From a virus (taxonomy: Duplodnaviria; Heunggongvirae; Uroviricota; Caudoviricetes), in IMG/VR virus record IMGVR_UViG_2547132270_000004, positions 1 to 4,711 of that record: a stretch of 4,711 nucleotides of DNA. One strand, 5' to 3'. How positions within the stretch are numbered: position 1 is the first letter of the stretch; the number at the start of each line of letters is the position of its first letter. The notes under the pieces were generated by a model that saw only the letters and a list, made by a program, of their open reading frames with translations, made no database searches and was not told the DNA's origin. Of the stretch, positions 1-4,711 are shown piece after piece. A program made the translations under genes and the position numbers.

Positions 1-19
1 GCATCACAAAATTCACTTT

Positions 20-61
20 AAAAAGGGCGGCAGAGCAGTCACGGAGTAAAACTGATACCGC
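20..61 (-). terminator. Rho-independent terminator forming the 3' end of DicF
   Basis: On the minus strand GGCGG (61-57) pairs with CCGCC (29-25) around an imperfect extended stem, followed directly by a TTTTT run (24-20). Confidence 0.55.
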
Positions 62-77
62 CAAACGCCACCAGAAA
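25..77 (-). ncRNA. dicF: DicF small regulatory RNA (ftsZ-targeting sRNA of the dic division-inhibition operon)
   Basis: Minus strand reads TTTCTGGTGGCGTTTGGCGGTATCAGTTTTACTCCGTGACTGCTCTGCCGCCC followed by TTTTT. This is 53 nt and matches my recollection of E. coli K-12 DicF at all but one position (G for A at the 10th nt). It lies at the distal end of the minus-strand operon downstream of the DicA-like repressor, as in Qin. Identity is from memory, not a search. Confidence 0.8.
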
Positions 78-413
78 ATTGATAACAGAGGGCGTTGTAG
101 CGGGGTTGTCACTTAAGCGTATGGTCAACCTGACAACCCGGTGTCCTCAACGGGGAAGGAATAACCCCGCCATACTTACCGCCGCGCCATTTCGCGGAGT
201 GCCACAACCGGAAGCGCACGGTCGAATTAAATTTAACGACACCGTACAGAGAGACCAATTTCGCCGTGTGCTTTCGCGTTATGCCCTGGCTTTTCAGGGA
301 TATATCCTTTCAGTAAACTGTCAGTACCGGATTCTTATCCGTGTCCGGCGCACGACCACACGTGACAGCGTGTTGGTCTCCATTTTTAACCCAGAACCTC
401 AATGGAGGATAAA

Positions 414-623
414 ATGCCAAACAAAAAAAGAAATCCGCTTATTGAAAAACAGATTGAATGCCTTGTAAATCAACTCAGGCAATCAGGGTTATTAAAAACT
501 CATTCAGAGTTGAGGCTCACAGAATCAGCATTCGACGATAAATTAAATAATGTCCTTTATAATGGCATTATTGATTTTAATCGTTCTGTTGGTCGCCGCG
601 GCCCTGCTGGTGTTTCCTTATAA
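414..623 (+). CDS. Hypothetical small protein (69 aa), convergent with the minus-strand operon
   Basis: ATG at 414 has a perfect GGAGG (404-408) 5 nt upstream; the ORF-track start at 402 has no RBS. Open frame to TAA 621-623. No recognisable domain. The C-terminal third overlaps an alternative-frame hydrophobic ORF, so the true coding frame is uncertain. Confidence 0.4.
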   Translation: MPNKKRNPLIEKQIECLVNQLRQSGLLKTHSELRLTESAFDDKLNNVLYNGIIDFNRSVGRRGPAGVSL

Positions 624-1262
624 TTACCAGTCAATCCAGAGCGGACCGTGTTCAGCGTAAATATAACTGTACACATCCAGATTATATTTGTGGTCTGTTA
701 AGAACAGGCCGCAAATACATGCCGAAGCTTCAAGGGCAGCGGCTCTGTTACTGAATAACCATGTAGCAACATTCCAGCGTTTTTCTGCATCCCAGTCTTT
801 CTCAAGGCCTGATACCATGAAGAAACCGTTAGTGTTGCCATCAAATAATTCTGTTTCCAGATTTTTAAGCAATGCCTGATGGACTCTTGCCAGGTATTCC
901 GCCGGAATTTTGCCACGAATTCTGATGAGATTGTCATAAACAAACATGTTCCCCGCATATGGCGATTTTTCTTTCTTGTTTTTTAAACCAGCATCATGAG
1001 CAAACTGATCAATTTCTTCTTCCGTTGGTTTCGTATTGATGTTTTGCGCTGTCGTTTCTGCAATTTTATTTGCCACACTCTCTGAGTCGTGTTTATTTAT
1101 AGACGCACAGAAATACAATCCGGTAAACGCATCGCGCACATTACGAGCTATATTATCAGTGTCTTTTTTCGTTACCGATTCCAATGCAAGTTCGTTCAGA
1201 CGATGACGAAGTGTATGTGCTGCAATCTCCTGGATTGAAGTAGGTAAATCTTTAAATTCCAT
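624..1262 (-). CDS. Hypothetical protein (212 aa), unrecognised cargo gene in the repressor-controlled operon
   Basis: Long minus-strand ORF (216 codons in the track). Preferred start is the internal ATG at 1260-1262, preceded by GAGG with a 6-nt spacer (minus strand TGATGAGGTTGACGATGG). The alternative ATG at 1272-1274 overlaps the upstream stop (TGATG). Predicted soluble and acidic, with no motif I recognise. Confidence 0.75.
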   Translation of the reverse strand: MEFKDLPTSIQEIAAHTLRHRLNELALESVTKKDTDNIARNVRDAFTGLYFCASINKHDSESVANKIAETTAQNINTKPTEEEIDQFAHDAGLKNKKEKSPYAGNMFVYDNLIRIRGKIPAEYLARVHQALLKNLETELFDGNTNGFFMVSGLEKDWDAEKRWNVATWLFSNRAAALEASACICGLFLTDHKYNLDVYSYIYAEHGPLWIDW

Positions 1263-1273
1263 CGTCAACCTCA

Positions 1274-1426
1274 TCAGTCAGAGTTTCTTGCTAACCAGCG
1301 ATGCGCGCCAGCTTCGGTTTTAAACGTTTTACTTTTGGTATACGTCATCGCGGTGAACGTGCCGTCCTGGTTGGGAAACACGTCGTACACCAGAGATTCG
1401 TTGTTGCCAAGATCGATAGTATCCAT
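1274..1426 (-). CDS. ydfA: Small protein (50 aa), YdfA-like (DUF1391-type) directly downstream of the dicA-like repressor
   Basis: The track ORF 1274..1519 has no RBS at its first ATG. The internal ATG at 1424-1426 is preceded by GGGGAAATGAGG (SD GAGG, 5-nt spacer). Size (50 aa) and position match ydfA (51 aa) of Qin and ydaF of Rac. The family assignment rests on synteny and size, not on verified sequence identity. Confidence 0.6.
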   Translation of the reverse strand: MDTIDLGNNESLVYDVFPNQDGTFTAMTYTKSKTFKTEAGAHRWLARNSD

Positions 1427-1503
1427 GCTGACCTCATTTCCCCTTAACGCCGGGGTAGCGGAACTGTTTGCTGAGAACACCGTGCGGTGTCTTGATGAAT
1501 GAT

Positions 1504-1555
1504 AATTTAGTTTTCTCATGTTAATTGGTCAAGTATTTTTGATGAGAAAACTCAA
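1504..1555 (-). promoter_or_regulatory. Putative sigma70 promoter of the early-left (dicB-type) operon with two flanking operator-like sites
   Basis: Minus strand: -35 TTGACC (1532-1527), 17-nt spacer, -10 TAAATT (1509-1504). Operator-like TGAGAAAACTCA at 1543-1554 sits just upstream of the -35. An 11/12 copy TGAGAAAACTAA (minus strand, 1518-1507) overlaps the spacer and -10. Confidence 0.45.
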
Positions 1556-1560
1556 TATTT

Positions 1561-1599
1561 AATGCAAAATAAAGCCAATACATTGAAATGTAAGGCTTT
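1561..1599 (-). terminator. Weak AT-rich hairpin plus T-tract downstream of the repressor gene (possible attenuator or terminator)
   Basis: Minus strand AAAGCC (1599-1594) and GGCTTT (1576-1571) form a stem, with an inner ACATT/AATGT pairing, followed by ATTTTGCATT (1570-1561). The stem is AT-rich, so termination efficiency is doubtful. Confidence 0.25.
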
Positions 1600-1616
1600 A
1601 AAATTTGTGAAGGGAG

Positions 1617-2024
1617 TTATTGATGTTTGTTACGTTTGCGAGCTTCTAGTAGCTCGGTGAATAGGCGATTAAAATTCTCAACGCGGGCACGGAGTTCGCT
1701 GATTTGTGCTTGCTGCTCTGATTTTGGAAGTGCGCGATACAATCGCAACATCTCCAACTCATCTTCCGATAAGTCTAAGGCGCTGTTGAGTGCAACTGGT
1801 GGATCTGGTGTTTTATCCTCGTCACCAAACAGTATCCAAGTTGGTGAACATTGCAATACCTCAGCCAGGCGATGCAAATTTTGCCCACGCGGGGCTGTAT
1901 GGTCGCTTTCCCATAGTGAAATTGATGAGCCAGATACGCCAGCAGCTTTGCTTAAATCGTTTTGACTTAAACCAACCTGTTTGCGTCTTTCTCTAATTCG
2001 TTGACCTAAAGTTTTCTCGTTCAT
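1617..2024 (-). CDS. dicA: DicA-like HTH (XRE/Cro-C1 family) prophage repressor, 135 aa
   Basis: N-terminal HTH (QRIRERRKQVGLSQNDLSKAAGVSGSSISLWES) and the motif LQCSPTWILFGDEDK, which I associate with DicA/RacR-family repressors. Start chosen at the ATG at 2022-2024 (MNEKTLGQ...), giving 135 aa as in K-12 DicA. The track start at 2075 would add 17 residues and leave no room for the divergent promoter. Confidence 0.85.
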   Translation of the reverse strand: MNEKTLGQRIRERRKQVGLSQNDLSKAAGVSGSSISLWESDHTAPRGQNLHRLAEVLQCSPTWILFGDEDKTPDPPVALNSALDLSEDELEMLRLYRALPKSEQQAQISELRARVENFNRLFTELLEARKRNKHQ

Positions 2025-2045
2025 ATTTAGATATCTTAATAACCC

Positions 2046-2088
2046 TTGACTTGAGATTCCTTGAGTGATTACCATTGAGAAAACTCAA
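2046..2088 (+). promoter_or_regulatory. Putative promoter of the cro-like gene with an overlapping inverted-repeat operator
   Basis: -35 TTGACT (2046-2051), 18-nt spacer, -10 TACCAT (2070-2075). The 14-bp inverted repeat TTGAG-AAAA-CTCAA (2075-2088) overlaps the -10 and the predicted +1. Extra TTGAG half-sites occur at 2051-2055 and 2061-2065. SD GGAGGGG (2093-2099) precedes the ATG at 2102. Confidence 0.45.
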
Positions 2089-2101
2089 TTTTGGAGGGGC
2101 G

Positions 2102-2329
2102 ATGTTTAAATCAGACGTAATTAATTTTTATGGGACGAAAGCCAAAGTAGCGAAAGCTGCTGGTGTTGATCCATCTGCTGTTTCTCAATGGGGGGCACTG
2201 GTTCCTGAAGGTCGCGCGATGCGCCTGCAAGAGGCATCCGGCGGGGAACTTCAGTACGACCCCAAAGTTTATGACGAATATCGTAAGGCAAAGCGGGCGG
2301 GGCGGCTGAACAATGAAAATCACCCCTGA
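2102..2329 (+). CDS. dicC: Cro-like HTH regulator (DicC/YdaS family), 75 aa
   Basis: Divergent from the repressor gene. ATG at 2102 follows a strong SD GGAGGGG; the track start at 2075 is a TTG lying inside the operator. HTH-like segment GTKAKVAKAAGVDPSAVSQW. Size matches DicC (76 aa). Confidence 0.8.
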   Translation: MFKSDVINFYGTKAKVAKAAGVDPSAVSQWGALVPEGRAMRLQEASGGELQYDPKVYDEYRKAKRAGRLNNENHP

Positions 2330-2834
2330 ACAGGTTTGTGAGGCTCTGGATGCCTGGGTATGCCGACCAGGAATGACACAGGAGCAGGCGACGATATTAA
2401 TCACGGAAGCATTCTGGGCTCTGAAAGAACGCCCGAACATCGATGTTCAACGCGTCACGTTTGATGATGGCGCGGTTGATCAACGGGCGCTGGGCGTCAA
2501 CCGGGTGAAGATATTCGAACGCTGGAAAGCTATTGATACCAGGGATAAGCGGGAAAAATTCACGGCGCTGATTCCGGCAATTATGGAGGCTATCCGGATA
2601 AGTGATTTCAGGTTGTATCGTGAAATTACTGACGGAAAAAGCATTACATACATGATCGCCGGGTTAAACAAAGAATATGGCGACGTGGTGGAGTCAGGTC
2701 TGCTTTTTGCAGATCCGGCTGTTGTGGATCGTGAAACCGACGAACTTATAGAAAAAGCCATTGCTTTCAAGCGTGCGTATCGTCAGCAATATCAACAAAA
2801 AGCCGGATGGAATTATGAGTCTTCTGTTTGCTGA
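2313..2834 (+). CDS. cII-position regulatory protein (173 aa), possibly YdaT-like CII functional equivalent
   Basis: ORF overlaps the cro-like gene by 17 nt (2313-2329) and sits where lambdoid phages carry cII. It shows no resemblance to lambda CII itself. The YdaT-family assignment is by synteny and vague recollection only. Confidence 0.75.
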   Translation: MKITPEQVCEALDAWVCRPGMTQEQATILITEAFWALKERPNIDVQRVTFDDGAVDQRALGVNRVKIFERWKAIDTRDKREKFTALIPAIMEAIRISDFRLYREITDGKSITYMIAGLNKEYGDVVESGLLFADPAVVDRETDELIEKAIAFKRAYRQQYQQKAGWNYESSVC

Positions 2835-3780
2835 ACGCCCACTGGTTATTAACACGCAGCTGGCGATGAAAATTGGCCTGAATGAAGCCATTGTACTGCA
2901 GCAGCTGCATTACTGGTTGAGAGATACTAATTCCGGCATGGAATGTAACGGGGTTCGCTGGATTTATAACACAACAGAACAATGGCTGGAACAGTTCCCG
3001 TTCTGGTCAGAGTCAACGTTAAAACGCGCATTTGCAAGTCTGAAAACGCTGGGGCTTTTGCGTTGCGAAAAGCTCAACAAATCAAAGCGTGACATGACTA
3101 ATTTTTACACGATTAATTACGAGAGTGAGCTTTTAGATGGTGGCAAAGTGAGCGAATCCATCAGGTCAAAATGCGCCGCTCCATCAGGTCAAAATGACAC
3201 GATGGAAGAGGTCAAAATGGCACGCTCCATTGGTTCAAAACGACCCAATGTCATCGGGTCAAAATGGCCTGATGATCTTACAGAGAATACAACAGAGAAT
3301 ACAACAGAGAATAAAAACACTTCTCGTCCGGAAGCTTCGCAACCGGACCCGCAGACGGCTGAACAGGATTTTTTAATCCGACACCCTGATGCGGTTGTGT
3401 TCAGTGCGAAAAAACGCCAGTGGGGAAGTCAGGAAGATTTGGCGTGCGCACAGTGGATCTGGGGACGAATCGTGAGTCTTTACGAGCAGGCGGCCAGCGA
3501 TGATGGCGAGATCACGAGACCGAAAGAACCCAACTGGACAGCATGGGCCAATGACGTGCGCACAATGCGGATGCTGGATGGCAGAACTCACAGACAAATT
3601 TGCGAAATGTTTGGGCGGGTACAGCGGGATCCATTCTGGGTAAAAAACATCATGAGTCCGTCAAAGCTCCGCGAAAAATGGGACGAACTGGTCATCCGCC
3701 TGGGGCGTTCATCTGTACAGCGTTGTGTGAATCATATTTCTGAACCGGACACCGAAATTCCGCCGGGGTTCAGGGGGTAA
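2815..3780 (+). CDS. Phage replication initiator / replisome organizer (lambda O-like), 321 aa, with internal iterons
   Basis: ATG at 2815 is chosen over the track's TTG at 2761; it overlaps the upstream gene's stop by 20 nt. The N-terminal domain has the look of a replisome-organizer DNA-binding domain. The central low-complexity linker is encoded by the iteron array and tandem repeats. It lies immediately upstream of the DnaC-like loader. Confidence 0.85.
   Translation: MSLLFAERPLVINTQLAMKIGLNEAIVLQQLHYWLRDTNSGMECNGVRWIYNTTEQWLEQFPFWSESTLKRAFASLKTLGLLRCEKLNKSKRDMTNFYTINYESELLDGGKVSESIRSKCAAPSGQNDTMEEVKMARSIGSKRPNVIGSKWPDDLTENTTENTTENKNTSRPEASQPDPQTAEQDFLIRHPDAVVFSAKKRQWGSQEDLACAQWIWGRIVSLYEQAASDDGEITRPKEPNWTAWANDVRTMRMLDGRTHRQICEMFGRVQRDPFWVKNIMSPSKLREKWDELVIRLGRSSVQRCVNHISEPDTEIPPGFRG
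3157..3266. repeat. Iteron array (five direct repeats, about 23-bp phasing): putative phage origin of replication inside the initiator gene
   Basis: Core GGTCAAAATG occurs at 3164-3173, 3187-3196, 3210-3219 and 3257-3266, with a variant GGTTCAAAACG at 3232-3242. Extended consensus is about TCCATCAGGTCAAAATG. The arrangement is analogous to ori-lambda within gene O. Confidence 0.6.
3280..3315. repeat. 12-bp tandem repeat ACAGAGAATACA, 2.9 copies, A-rich, encoding TENTTENTTEN
   Basis: Two perfect copies (3280-3291, 3292-3303) and an 11/12 third copy (3304-3315), immediately downstream of the iterons. Confidence 0.7.
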
Positions 3781-3786
3781 CGAACC

Positions 3787-4533
3787 ATGAAAAATATTGC
3801 GACAGGCGGCGTTCTGGAACGTATCCGCAGACTGACCCCGCCACATGTAACCGCCCCATTCAGAACGGTAGCGGAGTGGCGCGAGTGGCAGCTTGCTGAA
3901 GGCCAGAAGCGTAGCGAGGAGATCAACCGCCTGAATCGCCAGTTGCGGGTGGAAAAAATTCTGAATCGCTCAGGCATCCAGCCGTTGCACCGTAAATGCT
4001 CGTTTGCGAATTACCATGTACAGAACGACGGCCAGCGATACGCGTTAAGTCAGGCGAAATCCATCGCTGATGAACTGATGGCCGGATGCACAAATTTCGC
4101 GTTCAGCGGAAAACCTGGTACCGGAAAAAACCATCTGGCGGCGGCTATCGGAAATCGCCTGCTGAAAGACGGCCAGACAGTGATAGTGGTTACTGTGGCT
4201 GATGTTATGAGTGCCCTGCACGCCAGCTATGACGACGGGCAGTCAGGCGAAAAATTTTTGCGGGAACTGTGCGAAGTGGATCTGCTGGTTCTTGATGAAA
4301 TTGGCATTCAGCGTGAGACGAAAAACGAGCAGGTGGTGCTGCATCAGATTGTTGATCGCCGGACAGCATCGATGCGCAGTATGGGGATGCTGACAAACCT
4401 GAACTATGAGGCCATGAAAACGTTGCTCGGCGAGAGGATTATGGATCGCATGACCATGAACGGTGGGCGCTGGGTGACTTTTAACTGGGAAAGCTGGCGC
4501 CAGAATGTCGTCCAGCCAGGAATCACGAAGTAA
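3787..4533 (+). CDS. dnaC: DnaC-family AAA+ replicative helicase loader (prophage DnaC paralog), 248 aa
   Basis: Walker [18 protein letters not shown] and Walker [10 protein letters not shown]. Collinear similarity to E. coli DnaC along the whole length (MKN..., [33 protein letters not shown]). RBS GGGGG at 3772-3776. Confidence 0.95.
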
Positions 4534-4555
4534 TTTTTACCAGGAGAAAAATTTA

Positions 4556-4711
4556 ATGGAGACTGTTTTTGACGCACTGAAAGCAATGGGAAAAGCCACA
4601 TCCATAGAACTTGCGGCGCGACTTGATGTCAGTCGTGAAGAAGTGCTTAACGAACTATGGGAACTGAAAAAGGCTGGCTTTGTTGATAAAAGCGCGTACA
4701 CCTGGCGTGTG
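4556..4711 (+). CDS. Partial small ORF (5' part, 52 codons, runs off the window), possible winged-helix protein
   Basis: ATG at 4556 with GGAG (4543-4546) upstream; open to the window end. Translation begins [52 protein letters not shown]. It occupies the slot after the helicase-loader gene. Confidence 0.5.

Follow-up and report, generated by a model that had tools for sequence, protein, structure and literature searches.

We analysed a 4,711-nucleotide (nt) stretch of viral DNA (positions 1 to 4,711 of the IMG/VR record IMGVR_UViG_2547132270_000004; hereafter the window), which represents the early region of a lambdoid prophage of the Rac/Qin type. Its last two genes encode a replication initiator and a DnaC/YdaV-type helicase loader, and the middle of the initiator gene holds a tandem array of short palindromic repeats (iterons), followed directly by an A-rich tract with three 12-nt boxes (Table 1). 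A repeat search finds five abutting 23-nt units at 3159–3274 (spacing 23, 23, 23 and 24 nt), and Tandem Repeats Finder (TRF) reports a period of 23 with 5.3 copies (score 74, 3144–3266). The core GGTCAAAATG is present in four exact copies, all on the + strand and all inside the array (at 3164, 3187, 3210 and 3257), with GTTCAAAACG as the core of the fourth unit; none of 200 dinucleotide-preserving shuffles contained even one exact GGTCAAAATG match. Every unit is an imperfect palindrome with internal dyad symmetry, CATCnnGTCAaaaTGACnnGATG. In the second unit 8 of 11 pairs are symmetric, and this unit is identical in 75 of 81 sequences (the window and 80 related loci).

A sequence-only reading of this DNA, made before the present analysis, had described five copies of a 17-bp-class repeat at about 23-bp intervals, ending at 3266. 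The copy number and interval are borne out by the repeat search, TRF and the shuffles, but the unit is a 23-nt one and the array extends to 3274. Two elements had been missed: the three boxes at 3280–3315, which are part of the same element, and a decayed sixth unit at the left edge, in register exactly 23 nt 5' of the first core. Both the start of the TRF array (3144) and the onset of synonymous constraint (~3130, see below) fall within or near this degenerate unit, and Enterobacter and Raoultella relatives carry an intact iteron at the same offset (+326). The adjoining box array is the only other tandem repeat found by TRF in the window, which leaves the window without another visible candidate for an origin array. 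Rfam has no family match at the array. A DnaA-dependent origin was considered and rejected, as it would call for DnaA boxes at the origin: the window has one site with a single mismatch to the DnaA box (TTATCCACA), at 4681, which is not above chance.

Table 1 Features of the window, in map order (positions in nt from the first letter of the window; aa, amino acids; sRNA, small RNA; HTH, helix-turn-helix; ORF, open reading frame)
Feature	Position	Strand	Remarks
DicF antisense sRNA	25–76	−	Rfam RF00039, 76.4 bits, full-length
Gene without known function, then DUF1391 (ydaF-like) gene		−	follow DicF in map order
HTH repressor gene	1617–2075	−	
pR-like promoter candidate	2046–2075	+	consensus scan, TTGACT-18-TACCAT; 5' of the cro-like gene
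P22-Cro-like gene	2102–2329	+	
YdaT/cII-like gene	2313–2834	+	
Replication initiator gene	2815–3780	+	321 aa; ORF list; PHROG phrog_391
Region encoding the N-terminal winged-helix domain	2815–3135	+	~aa 1–107 (to ~110); putative iteron-binding domain
Degenerate sixth (leftmost) iteron	3136–3158	+	core TGGCAAAGTG at 3141–3150
Iteron 1	3159–3181	+	CATCAGGTCAAAATGCGCCGCTC
Iteron 2	3182–3204	+	CATCAGGTCAAAATGACACGATG; best dyad symmetry
Iteron 3	3205–3227	+	GAAGAGGTCAAAATGGCACGCTC
Iteron 4	3228–3250	+	CATTGGTTCAAAACGACCCAATG; variant core, perfect 6-bp outer arms
Iteron 5	3252–3274	+	CATCGGGTCAAAATGGCCTGATG
A-rich tract with three 12-nt boxes	3277–3320	+	ACAGAGAATACA; candidate DNA-unwinding and helicase-loading element
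Region homologous to the lambda O C-terminal domain	3361–3696	+	aa 183–294
C-terminal tail of the initiator	3727–3777	+	VNHISEPDTEIPPGFRG, last 17 residues; common to DnaT and Rac YdaU; candidate contact for DnaC-type loaders
DnaC/YdaV-type helicase-loader gene	3787–4533	+	248 aa; NF009043, DnaC equivalog, Pfam AAA+

The repeats also encode a repetitive peptide, which the earlier description had given as SGQN / GSK, yet this is only a by-product: since 23 is not a multiple of three, the GGTCAAAATG-type core is translated in all three frames, giving RSK, GQN, VKM, GSK and GSK in successive units. We compared 80 close relatives from IMG/VR, all of them encoding a 321-aa protein of 93–98% identity (58 distinct gene sequences). 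Diversity in the two folded domains is 0.13–0.18 at third codon positions and 0.02–0.04 at first and second positions; within 3159–3320 the third-position value drops to ~0.035 for the iterons and ~0.009 for the box tract, and it is there no longer higher than at the other two positions. Variable third positions make up 13 of 54 inside 3159–3320 and 163 of 268 outside (Fisher p = 8.9e-7, a value which overstates independence, the relatives being phylogenetically related), while the same test finds no difference at first and second positions. At every codon position, diversity reaches its minimum for the gene in the box tract. A recent selective sweep would lower all positions together, which is not seen; protein constraint is instead relaxed here and DNA constraint has taken its place, with synonymous sites constrained specifically across 3130–3340. 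We conclude that the repeat acts as DNA and not as peptide, and that iterons and boxes are under DNA-level selection. To the contrary view, that the segment is a protein-level repeat or slippage product, i.e. a flexible linker of low complexity in which repetition at the DNA level serves no purpose in itself, we give next to no credence. The linker is poorly conserved and probably disordered (predicted local distance difference test, pLDDT, <50 from aa 117; first- and second-position diversity raised) and the 12-nt boxes happen to lie in frame, but a peptide repeat is impossible with a 23-nt period, and synonymous sites are tighter than in the folded domains where non-synonymous sites are not. 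Box codons, moreover, are fixed against the usage of the genes that contain them, and boxes in other frames and in non-coding DNA exist, as described next.

AT pairs make up 69% of the segment 3275–3325 and A alone 51% of its top strand, and no 40-bp stretch of the initiator gene is less stable than 3277–3317 (z = +2.2). Of 78 homologous loci, 55 have boxes of the form CAGAGAnTAC (one mismatch allowed) 3' of the iterons, and the boxes are concentrated at this place: 149 lie in the 290-nt segments following the N-terminal domain, compared with 29 on the + strand in the 400 nt upstream of the gene, 26 elsewhere on that strand and 11 on the minus strand. They come in 2–5 copies, and successive pairs are mostly 12 nt apart (77 of 88; otherwise 10, 11, 13 or 14 nt). 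Most are read as T-E-x-T, those of the window as TENT TENT TENK. Among the T-E-x-T boxes found at the protein level, threonine is ACA in 67 of 69 cases and glutamate is GAG in 67 of 69, whereas the rest of the same genes use ACA at 27% and GAG at 43% (p = 3e-34 and 5e-22); the bias holds in Firmicutes and in the remaining loci, Proteobacteria included, when each set is taken separately. In some boxes translation runs in another frame, giving TRDY or QRLP. In Neobacillus bataviensis (locus L150), the non-coding DNA that separates groEL from the homologous gene contains iteron-like sites and four boxes. Several Bacillaceae loci (L150, L119, L120, L134, L139, L152, L160, L162 and L167) encode an N-domain homologue without an intragenic array and have boxes 200–300 nt upstream of the gene. 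Boxes occur in Enterobacterales, Bacillaceae, Lactobacillaceae, Campylobacterota and Bacteroidota (e.g. L088 1877–1910, L085 1895–1925, L150 1230–1320), and their sequence hardly changes between Escherichia, Bacillus, Lactobacillus, Hydrogenimonas and Taibaiella, in contrast to the diverging iteron arms. No description of the CAGAGAnTAC box was found in the searchable literature. At L150 the element (943–1422) abuts the 3' end of groEL, an arrangement resembling an integrated island or satellite.

Comparing arrays among related prophages had been proposed as a check in the sequence-only reading, and equivalent arrays do occur at the same place across several phyla. With the exception of the uncultured phage clone 2F_1, all N-domain homologues that we fetched carry repeats of a similar core directly 3' of the domain: Staphylococcus phage P954 (core GGACAAAATGGCC, period 22–23), Bacillus phage vB_BhaS-171 (TGGTCAAAATGACCA, period 22–23), Hafnia phage yong2 (GGGACAAATTGTCC, period 23) and Lactobacillus phage mv4 (period 22–23), with weaker arrays in Vibrio phage KF3 (CCGACAAAATGGCGG, 3 copies, irregular spacing) and a Flavobacterium phage (TTGCAAAATTGCAA, 2 copies with a 22-nt spacing). 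A scan with an N-domain alignment, limited to one genome per species, returned 80 loci; a 4-sequence alignment served as the query, the multi-phylum alignment being too divergent for this purpose. In the segment equivalent to the array, 35 of 79 loci have at least three copies of a self-derived 10-mer at 20–25-nt phasing (control segments mostly have 2), and TRF finds arrays of period 20–25 in 37 of 78. A central CAAA(A/T)TG is kept across loci, and the palindromic arms vary (GGTCA, GTTCA, GCTCA, GGGCA, GTGCC, GGATC).

Phage Kati and Klebsiella phage Kp4879-1 share the C-terminal half of the initiator (46% identity from aa 67) and have an intragenic array at the same spot, but their first ~66 aa are different (PF13730, HTH_36, in Kati), their iterons are 15-nt ones (GTCAAAATCTGACnC, 5–6 copies) and CAGAGAnTAC boxes are absent; DNA homology between Kati and the window resumes directly after the box tract. 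A different N-domain is therefore accompanied by a different array, and the two types go hand in hand, which is what binding of one by the other would predict. N-domain, iterons and boxes are co-inherited across phyla as one exchangeable cassette. A TCAAAA(T/C) centre between palindromic arms is common to arrays of three N-domain classes, namely lambda with PF04492 (L087 535–621), Kati with PF13730 (L082 1534–1610) and the unnamed domain (window 3164–3266), and this could reflect either common descent or the same need for an A-tract bend.

The palindromes also bear on the idea that the element works in RNA, with hairpins regulating translation or stability of the initiator mRNA. The fold of 3136–3330 is indeed stable (z = -3.25, with 0 of 200 shuffles folding as well), but the hairpins are the dyad-symmetric units themselves and such stability is expected of palindromic binding sites. 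The composite also stands in non-coding DNA upstream of the gene in L150, Rfam offers no match, and the arms differ among relatives where the tandem 21–24-nt phasing is kept, which fits arrayed protein-binding sites. We regard a role in mRNA as very improbable.

The initiator matches PHROG phrog_391, "replication initiation O-like" (2e-95), and no Pfam family; its N-terminus (MSLLF...) aligns with the starts of homologues. It is a chimera of a RepA_N/DnaD-like winged-helix N-domain and a lambda-O-like C-domain, paired with a DnaC-type partner. By tblastn against phage genomes, aa 183–315 are matched at 36–39% identity by the O C-terminal domains of lambda, 434, 21 and 933W, and aa 1–130 show ~45% identity to initiator N-termini of Staphylococcus, Bacillus and Lactobacillus phages; BLASTP against lambda O aligns aa 147–294 with O aa 135–270 (34% identity, 6e-27). 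The limits of the domains were set from homology and from pLDDT. The N-domain has no match to PF04492 (Phage_rep_O) even at E <= 10, lambda O itself scoring 5.7e-36, nor does it match PF06970 (RepA_N). The designation "O-like" given to this gene in the sequence-only reading thus applies to the C-terminal half and the overall architecture, and not to the N-domain. AlphaFold2 predicts a winged helix for the latter (pLDDT 82.7), with confidence collapsing below 50 from aa 117, where the iteron-encoded part begins. The closest solved fold to this model is that of a RepA_N plasmid initiator, at 11% sequence identity; next come the N-terminus of B. subtilis DnaB and winged helices of the MarR/CRP type. 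The domain belongs to no Pfam family, although 136 phage records and ~400 protein clusters from several phyla contain it. Three loci in metagenome bins labelled Bacillota, Veillonella parvula and Collinsella (L094, L095 and L124) encode an initiator N-domain 97–98% identical to the Escherichia one, and are probably mis-binned Escherichia prophage DNA.

The loader is 49% identical to E. coli DnaC and matches NF009043 (2.4e-151, above cutoff), the DnaC equivalog (1.5e-91) and the Pfam IstB_IS21 / Bac_DnaA AAA+ families. The C-terminal tail of the initiator, VNHISEPDTEIPPGFRG, nearly matches the end of DnaT, VNTVSEPDSQIPPGFRG (L172 2479–2530, - strand), and resembles the end of YdaU of the Rac prophage (L001 ~5925–5977); it is matched by the NCBIfam DnaT model and by PDB DnaT chains 2ru8, 6aep and 9zbt (E 5e-4 to 1e-3). 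Initiator, DnaT and YdaU are otherwise unrelated, and each is encoded directly upstream of a DnaC-family gene. This comparison of sequences and gene order suggests that DnaC-type loaders may dock on the tail peptide. A 2026 paper on the preprimosome leaves the recruitment of DnaB/DnaC by DnaT unresolved (PMC13377028). YdaU itself was tried as a homologue of the initiator and rejected: it is a DUF1376 protein which has only the C-terminal tail in common.

An origin inside the initiator gene is familiar in kind, from lambda, its relatives and RepA_N plasmids. The anatomy and function of the lambda origin have been described (PMC7466680). The lambda record annotates four iterons at aa 117–145 of O (iteron 4 at ~aa 139–145), followed by an AT-rich tract, and the protein alignment pairs iteron 5 and the A-rich boxes of the window with lambda iteron 4 and the AT-rich segment of lambda. 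The position is thus equivalent to ori-lambda, as the sequence-only reading had held when it placed the array in the linker-coding part of the gene. The two elements further agree in having tandem iterons of dyad symmetry centred on an A-tract (lambda TCCCTCAAAACGAGGGA, spacing 20–24 nt; here GGTCAAAATGACC, 23–24 nt), in the location of the array in the linker-coding middle of the initiator gene, in the A-rich purine-skewed tract that follows, and in the homology of the C-terminal domains. They differ in the N-domain, in the number of iterons (five or six, four in lambda), in the A-rich tract, which in the window consists of three phased 12-nt boxes with no palindrome after it, and in the partner protein, a DnaC-type AAA+ loader here and P in lambda. 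The sequence features of an ori-lambda-type origin are present, i.e. at least three tandem dyad repeats between the N- and C-domains, an adjacent AT-rich meltable tract, equivalent position and DNA-level selection, whereas of those defining the lambda O family only C-domain homology is found, a PF04492 N-domain and a P-type loader being absent.

RepA_N initiators bind Rep boxes in the centre of their own gene, and the linker encoded by the origin is dispensable as protein (PMC5703833). Their N-terminal domain and origin are swapped as a unit, e.g. in pPR9 with a PF13730 domain (PMC5703833), the same logic that distinguishes the window from Kati. The window shares with the RepA proteins of pSK41 and pTZ2162 the winged-helix fold, which is a predicted one here, and the central position of the repeats in the gene. 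It departs from them in sequence, as given above, in the C-terminal domain (DnaD-like and primase-binding in RepA_N, lambda-O-like here), and in the replicons concerned, RepA_N being found on theta plasmids of Firmicutes and not on phages. The "DnaD-like" or "replisome organiser" initiators of Gram-positive phages (P954 gp20, vB_BhaS-171 gp52, mv4 ORF292) are true N-domain homologues (41–50% identity) with nearly the same iteron core at the same place (GGACAAAATGGCC, GGTCAAAATGACC), followed by CAGAGAnTAC boxes, but their C-terminal halves are different (DnaB_2/DnaD-like in P954) and their partners are DnaB-type helicases or other loaders. No experimental mapping of an origin was found for initiators of this type.

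Taken together, the comparative and sequence-level tests agree with the candidate intragenic origin proposed by the sequence-only reading. We suggest that the array is very probably the initiator-binding part of the prophage replication origin, of the ori-lambda type and situated in the linker-coding segment of the initiator gene; that it is bound and fires is what we infer from this agreement. Dimers of the predicted winged-helix N-domain would occupy each dyad 23-bp iteron (five good ones and the decayed sixth) and, on these A-tract-centred sites, may assemble a nucleoprotein complex resembling the O-some. The resulting stress could be relieved by opening of the adjoining A-rich tract, and we interpret its boxes as an unwinding and helicase-loading element. 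The lambda-O-like C-domain and the DnaT-like tail would bring the phage DnaC-type loader together with host DnaB, which would then be loaded on the opened tract, and transcription from the upstream pR-like promoter through the origin may contribute to activation. Plasmid iterons also serve in copy control, and the array lies within the initiator's own transcript; the repeats might thus be initiator-binding control sites (for autoregulation, titration/handcuffing or a transcription roadblock) rather than a start site, a possibility to which the boxes upstream of the gene in some distant homologues lend some support. We consider it quite improbable, as the array is always paired with an adjacent meltable A-rich box tract, the non-coding case included, which is the anatomy of an origin and not of an operator, and as its position is equivalent to ori-lambda with no second candidate array visible in the window.

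Several points weigh against an origin of this kind. About half of the distant N-domain homologues, mostly from Bacillaceae with a DnaD-like C-terminal half, have no clear intragenic array by the criteria used, and in 10 of these the boxes are upstream of the gene instead. The instability of the box tract is moderate, several intergenic stretches of the window ranking above it, and a palindrome or inverted repeat 3' of the A-rich tract, as in lambda, was looked for and not found. The N-domain falls outside both PF04492 and RepA_N by sequence, and the relatedness of the sequences lessens the force of the diversity test. Our literature search found no experiment on this origin or on any close family member. 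It covered iteron/O/DnaC prophages, Eru typing of Stx phages, replisome organisers and Rac oriJ, and returned nothing specific on this type of origin; iterons and DnaC are unmentioned in the paper on Eru replication-region typing, and a full-text search with the repeat sequences gave unrelated primer matches only. Finally, this copy of the prophage could be inactive: the module is Rac/Qin-like (DicF, DUF1391, YdaT-like and YdaV-like genes), such prophages are often cryptic, and the leftmost unit is decayed. That the array is merely the remnant of an origin in a defective prophage, not firing in this copy, nevertheless appears unlikely to us, given that all module genes are intact in the ORF list of the window (4.7 kb of the prophage), that iterons and boxes are under purifying selection at the DNA level across the 58 distinct variants, and that near-identical modules are present in the isolated phages PhiR42_1 and HannyBb.

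A more far-reaching reading of the boxes can be put forward tentatively, though we think it is more probably wrong than right. Beyond an AT-rich spacer, they might form a second recognition element, previously undescribed, of a cross-phylum origin module, read by the invariant N-terminal helix GLNEAIVLQQxHYW of this initiator family, possibly as single-stranded DNA; the ...SEPDxxIPPGFRG tail would then be a generic docking peptide for DnaC loaders in phage initiators, YdaU and DnaT. Such recognition would be analogous to that of DnaA-trios or to the binding of plasmid unwinding elements by Rep.

Parts of the initiator gene are present in 3,931 of 5,426 complete E. coli genomes, and the full-length gene in 1,748, where it is usually annotated as "hypothetical protein". 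The present analysis annotates the probable origin of a replication module that is very common among E. coli prophages, and shows that a Pfam-less N-domain is inherited together with its iterons and a conserved box element as one cross-phylum cassette. This helps in annotating the origins of phages, prophages and satellites and in choosing minimal replicons, and also in predicting whether prophages resident in the same cell would be incompatible in replication or activate each other.

As to the surroundings of the origin, the DicF sRNA identifies the window as the early region of a Qin/Rac-type prophage. The candidate pR-like promoter is placed by analogy with lambda pR and would drive transcription through the origin; it is a weak candidate, the number of such sites being no higher than shuffle expectation. 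The promoter and terminator scan found none inside the iteron array. The first 20 nt of the initiator gene, from its ATG, are shared with the end of the cII/YdaT-like gene, and the initiator stop codon is 6 nt upstream of the start of the DnaC-like gene, a tight packing which suggests translational coupling along the operon.

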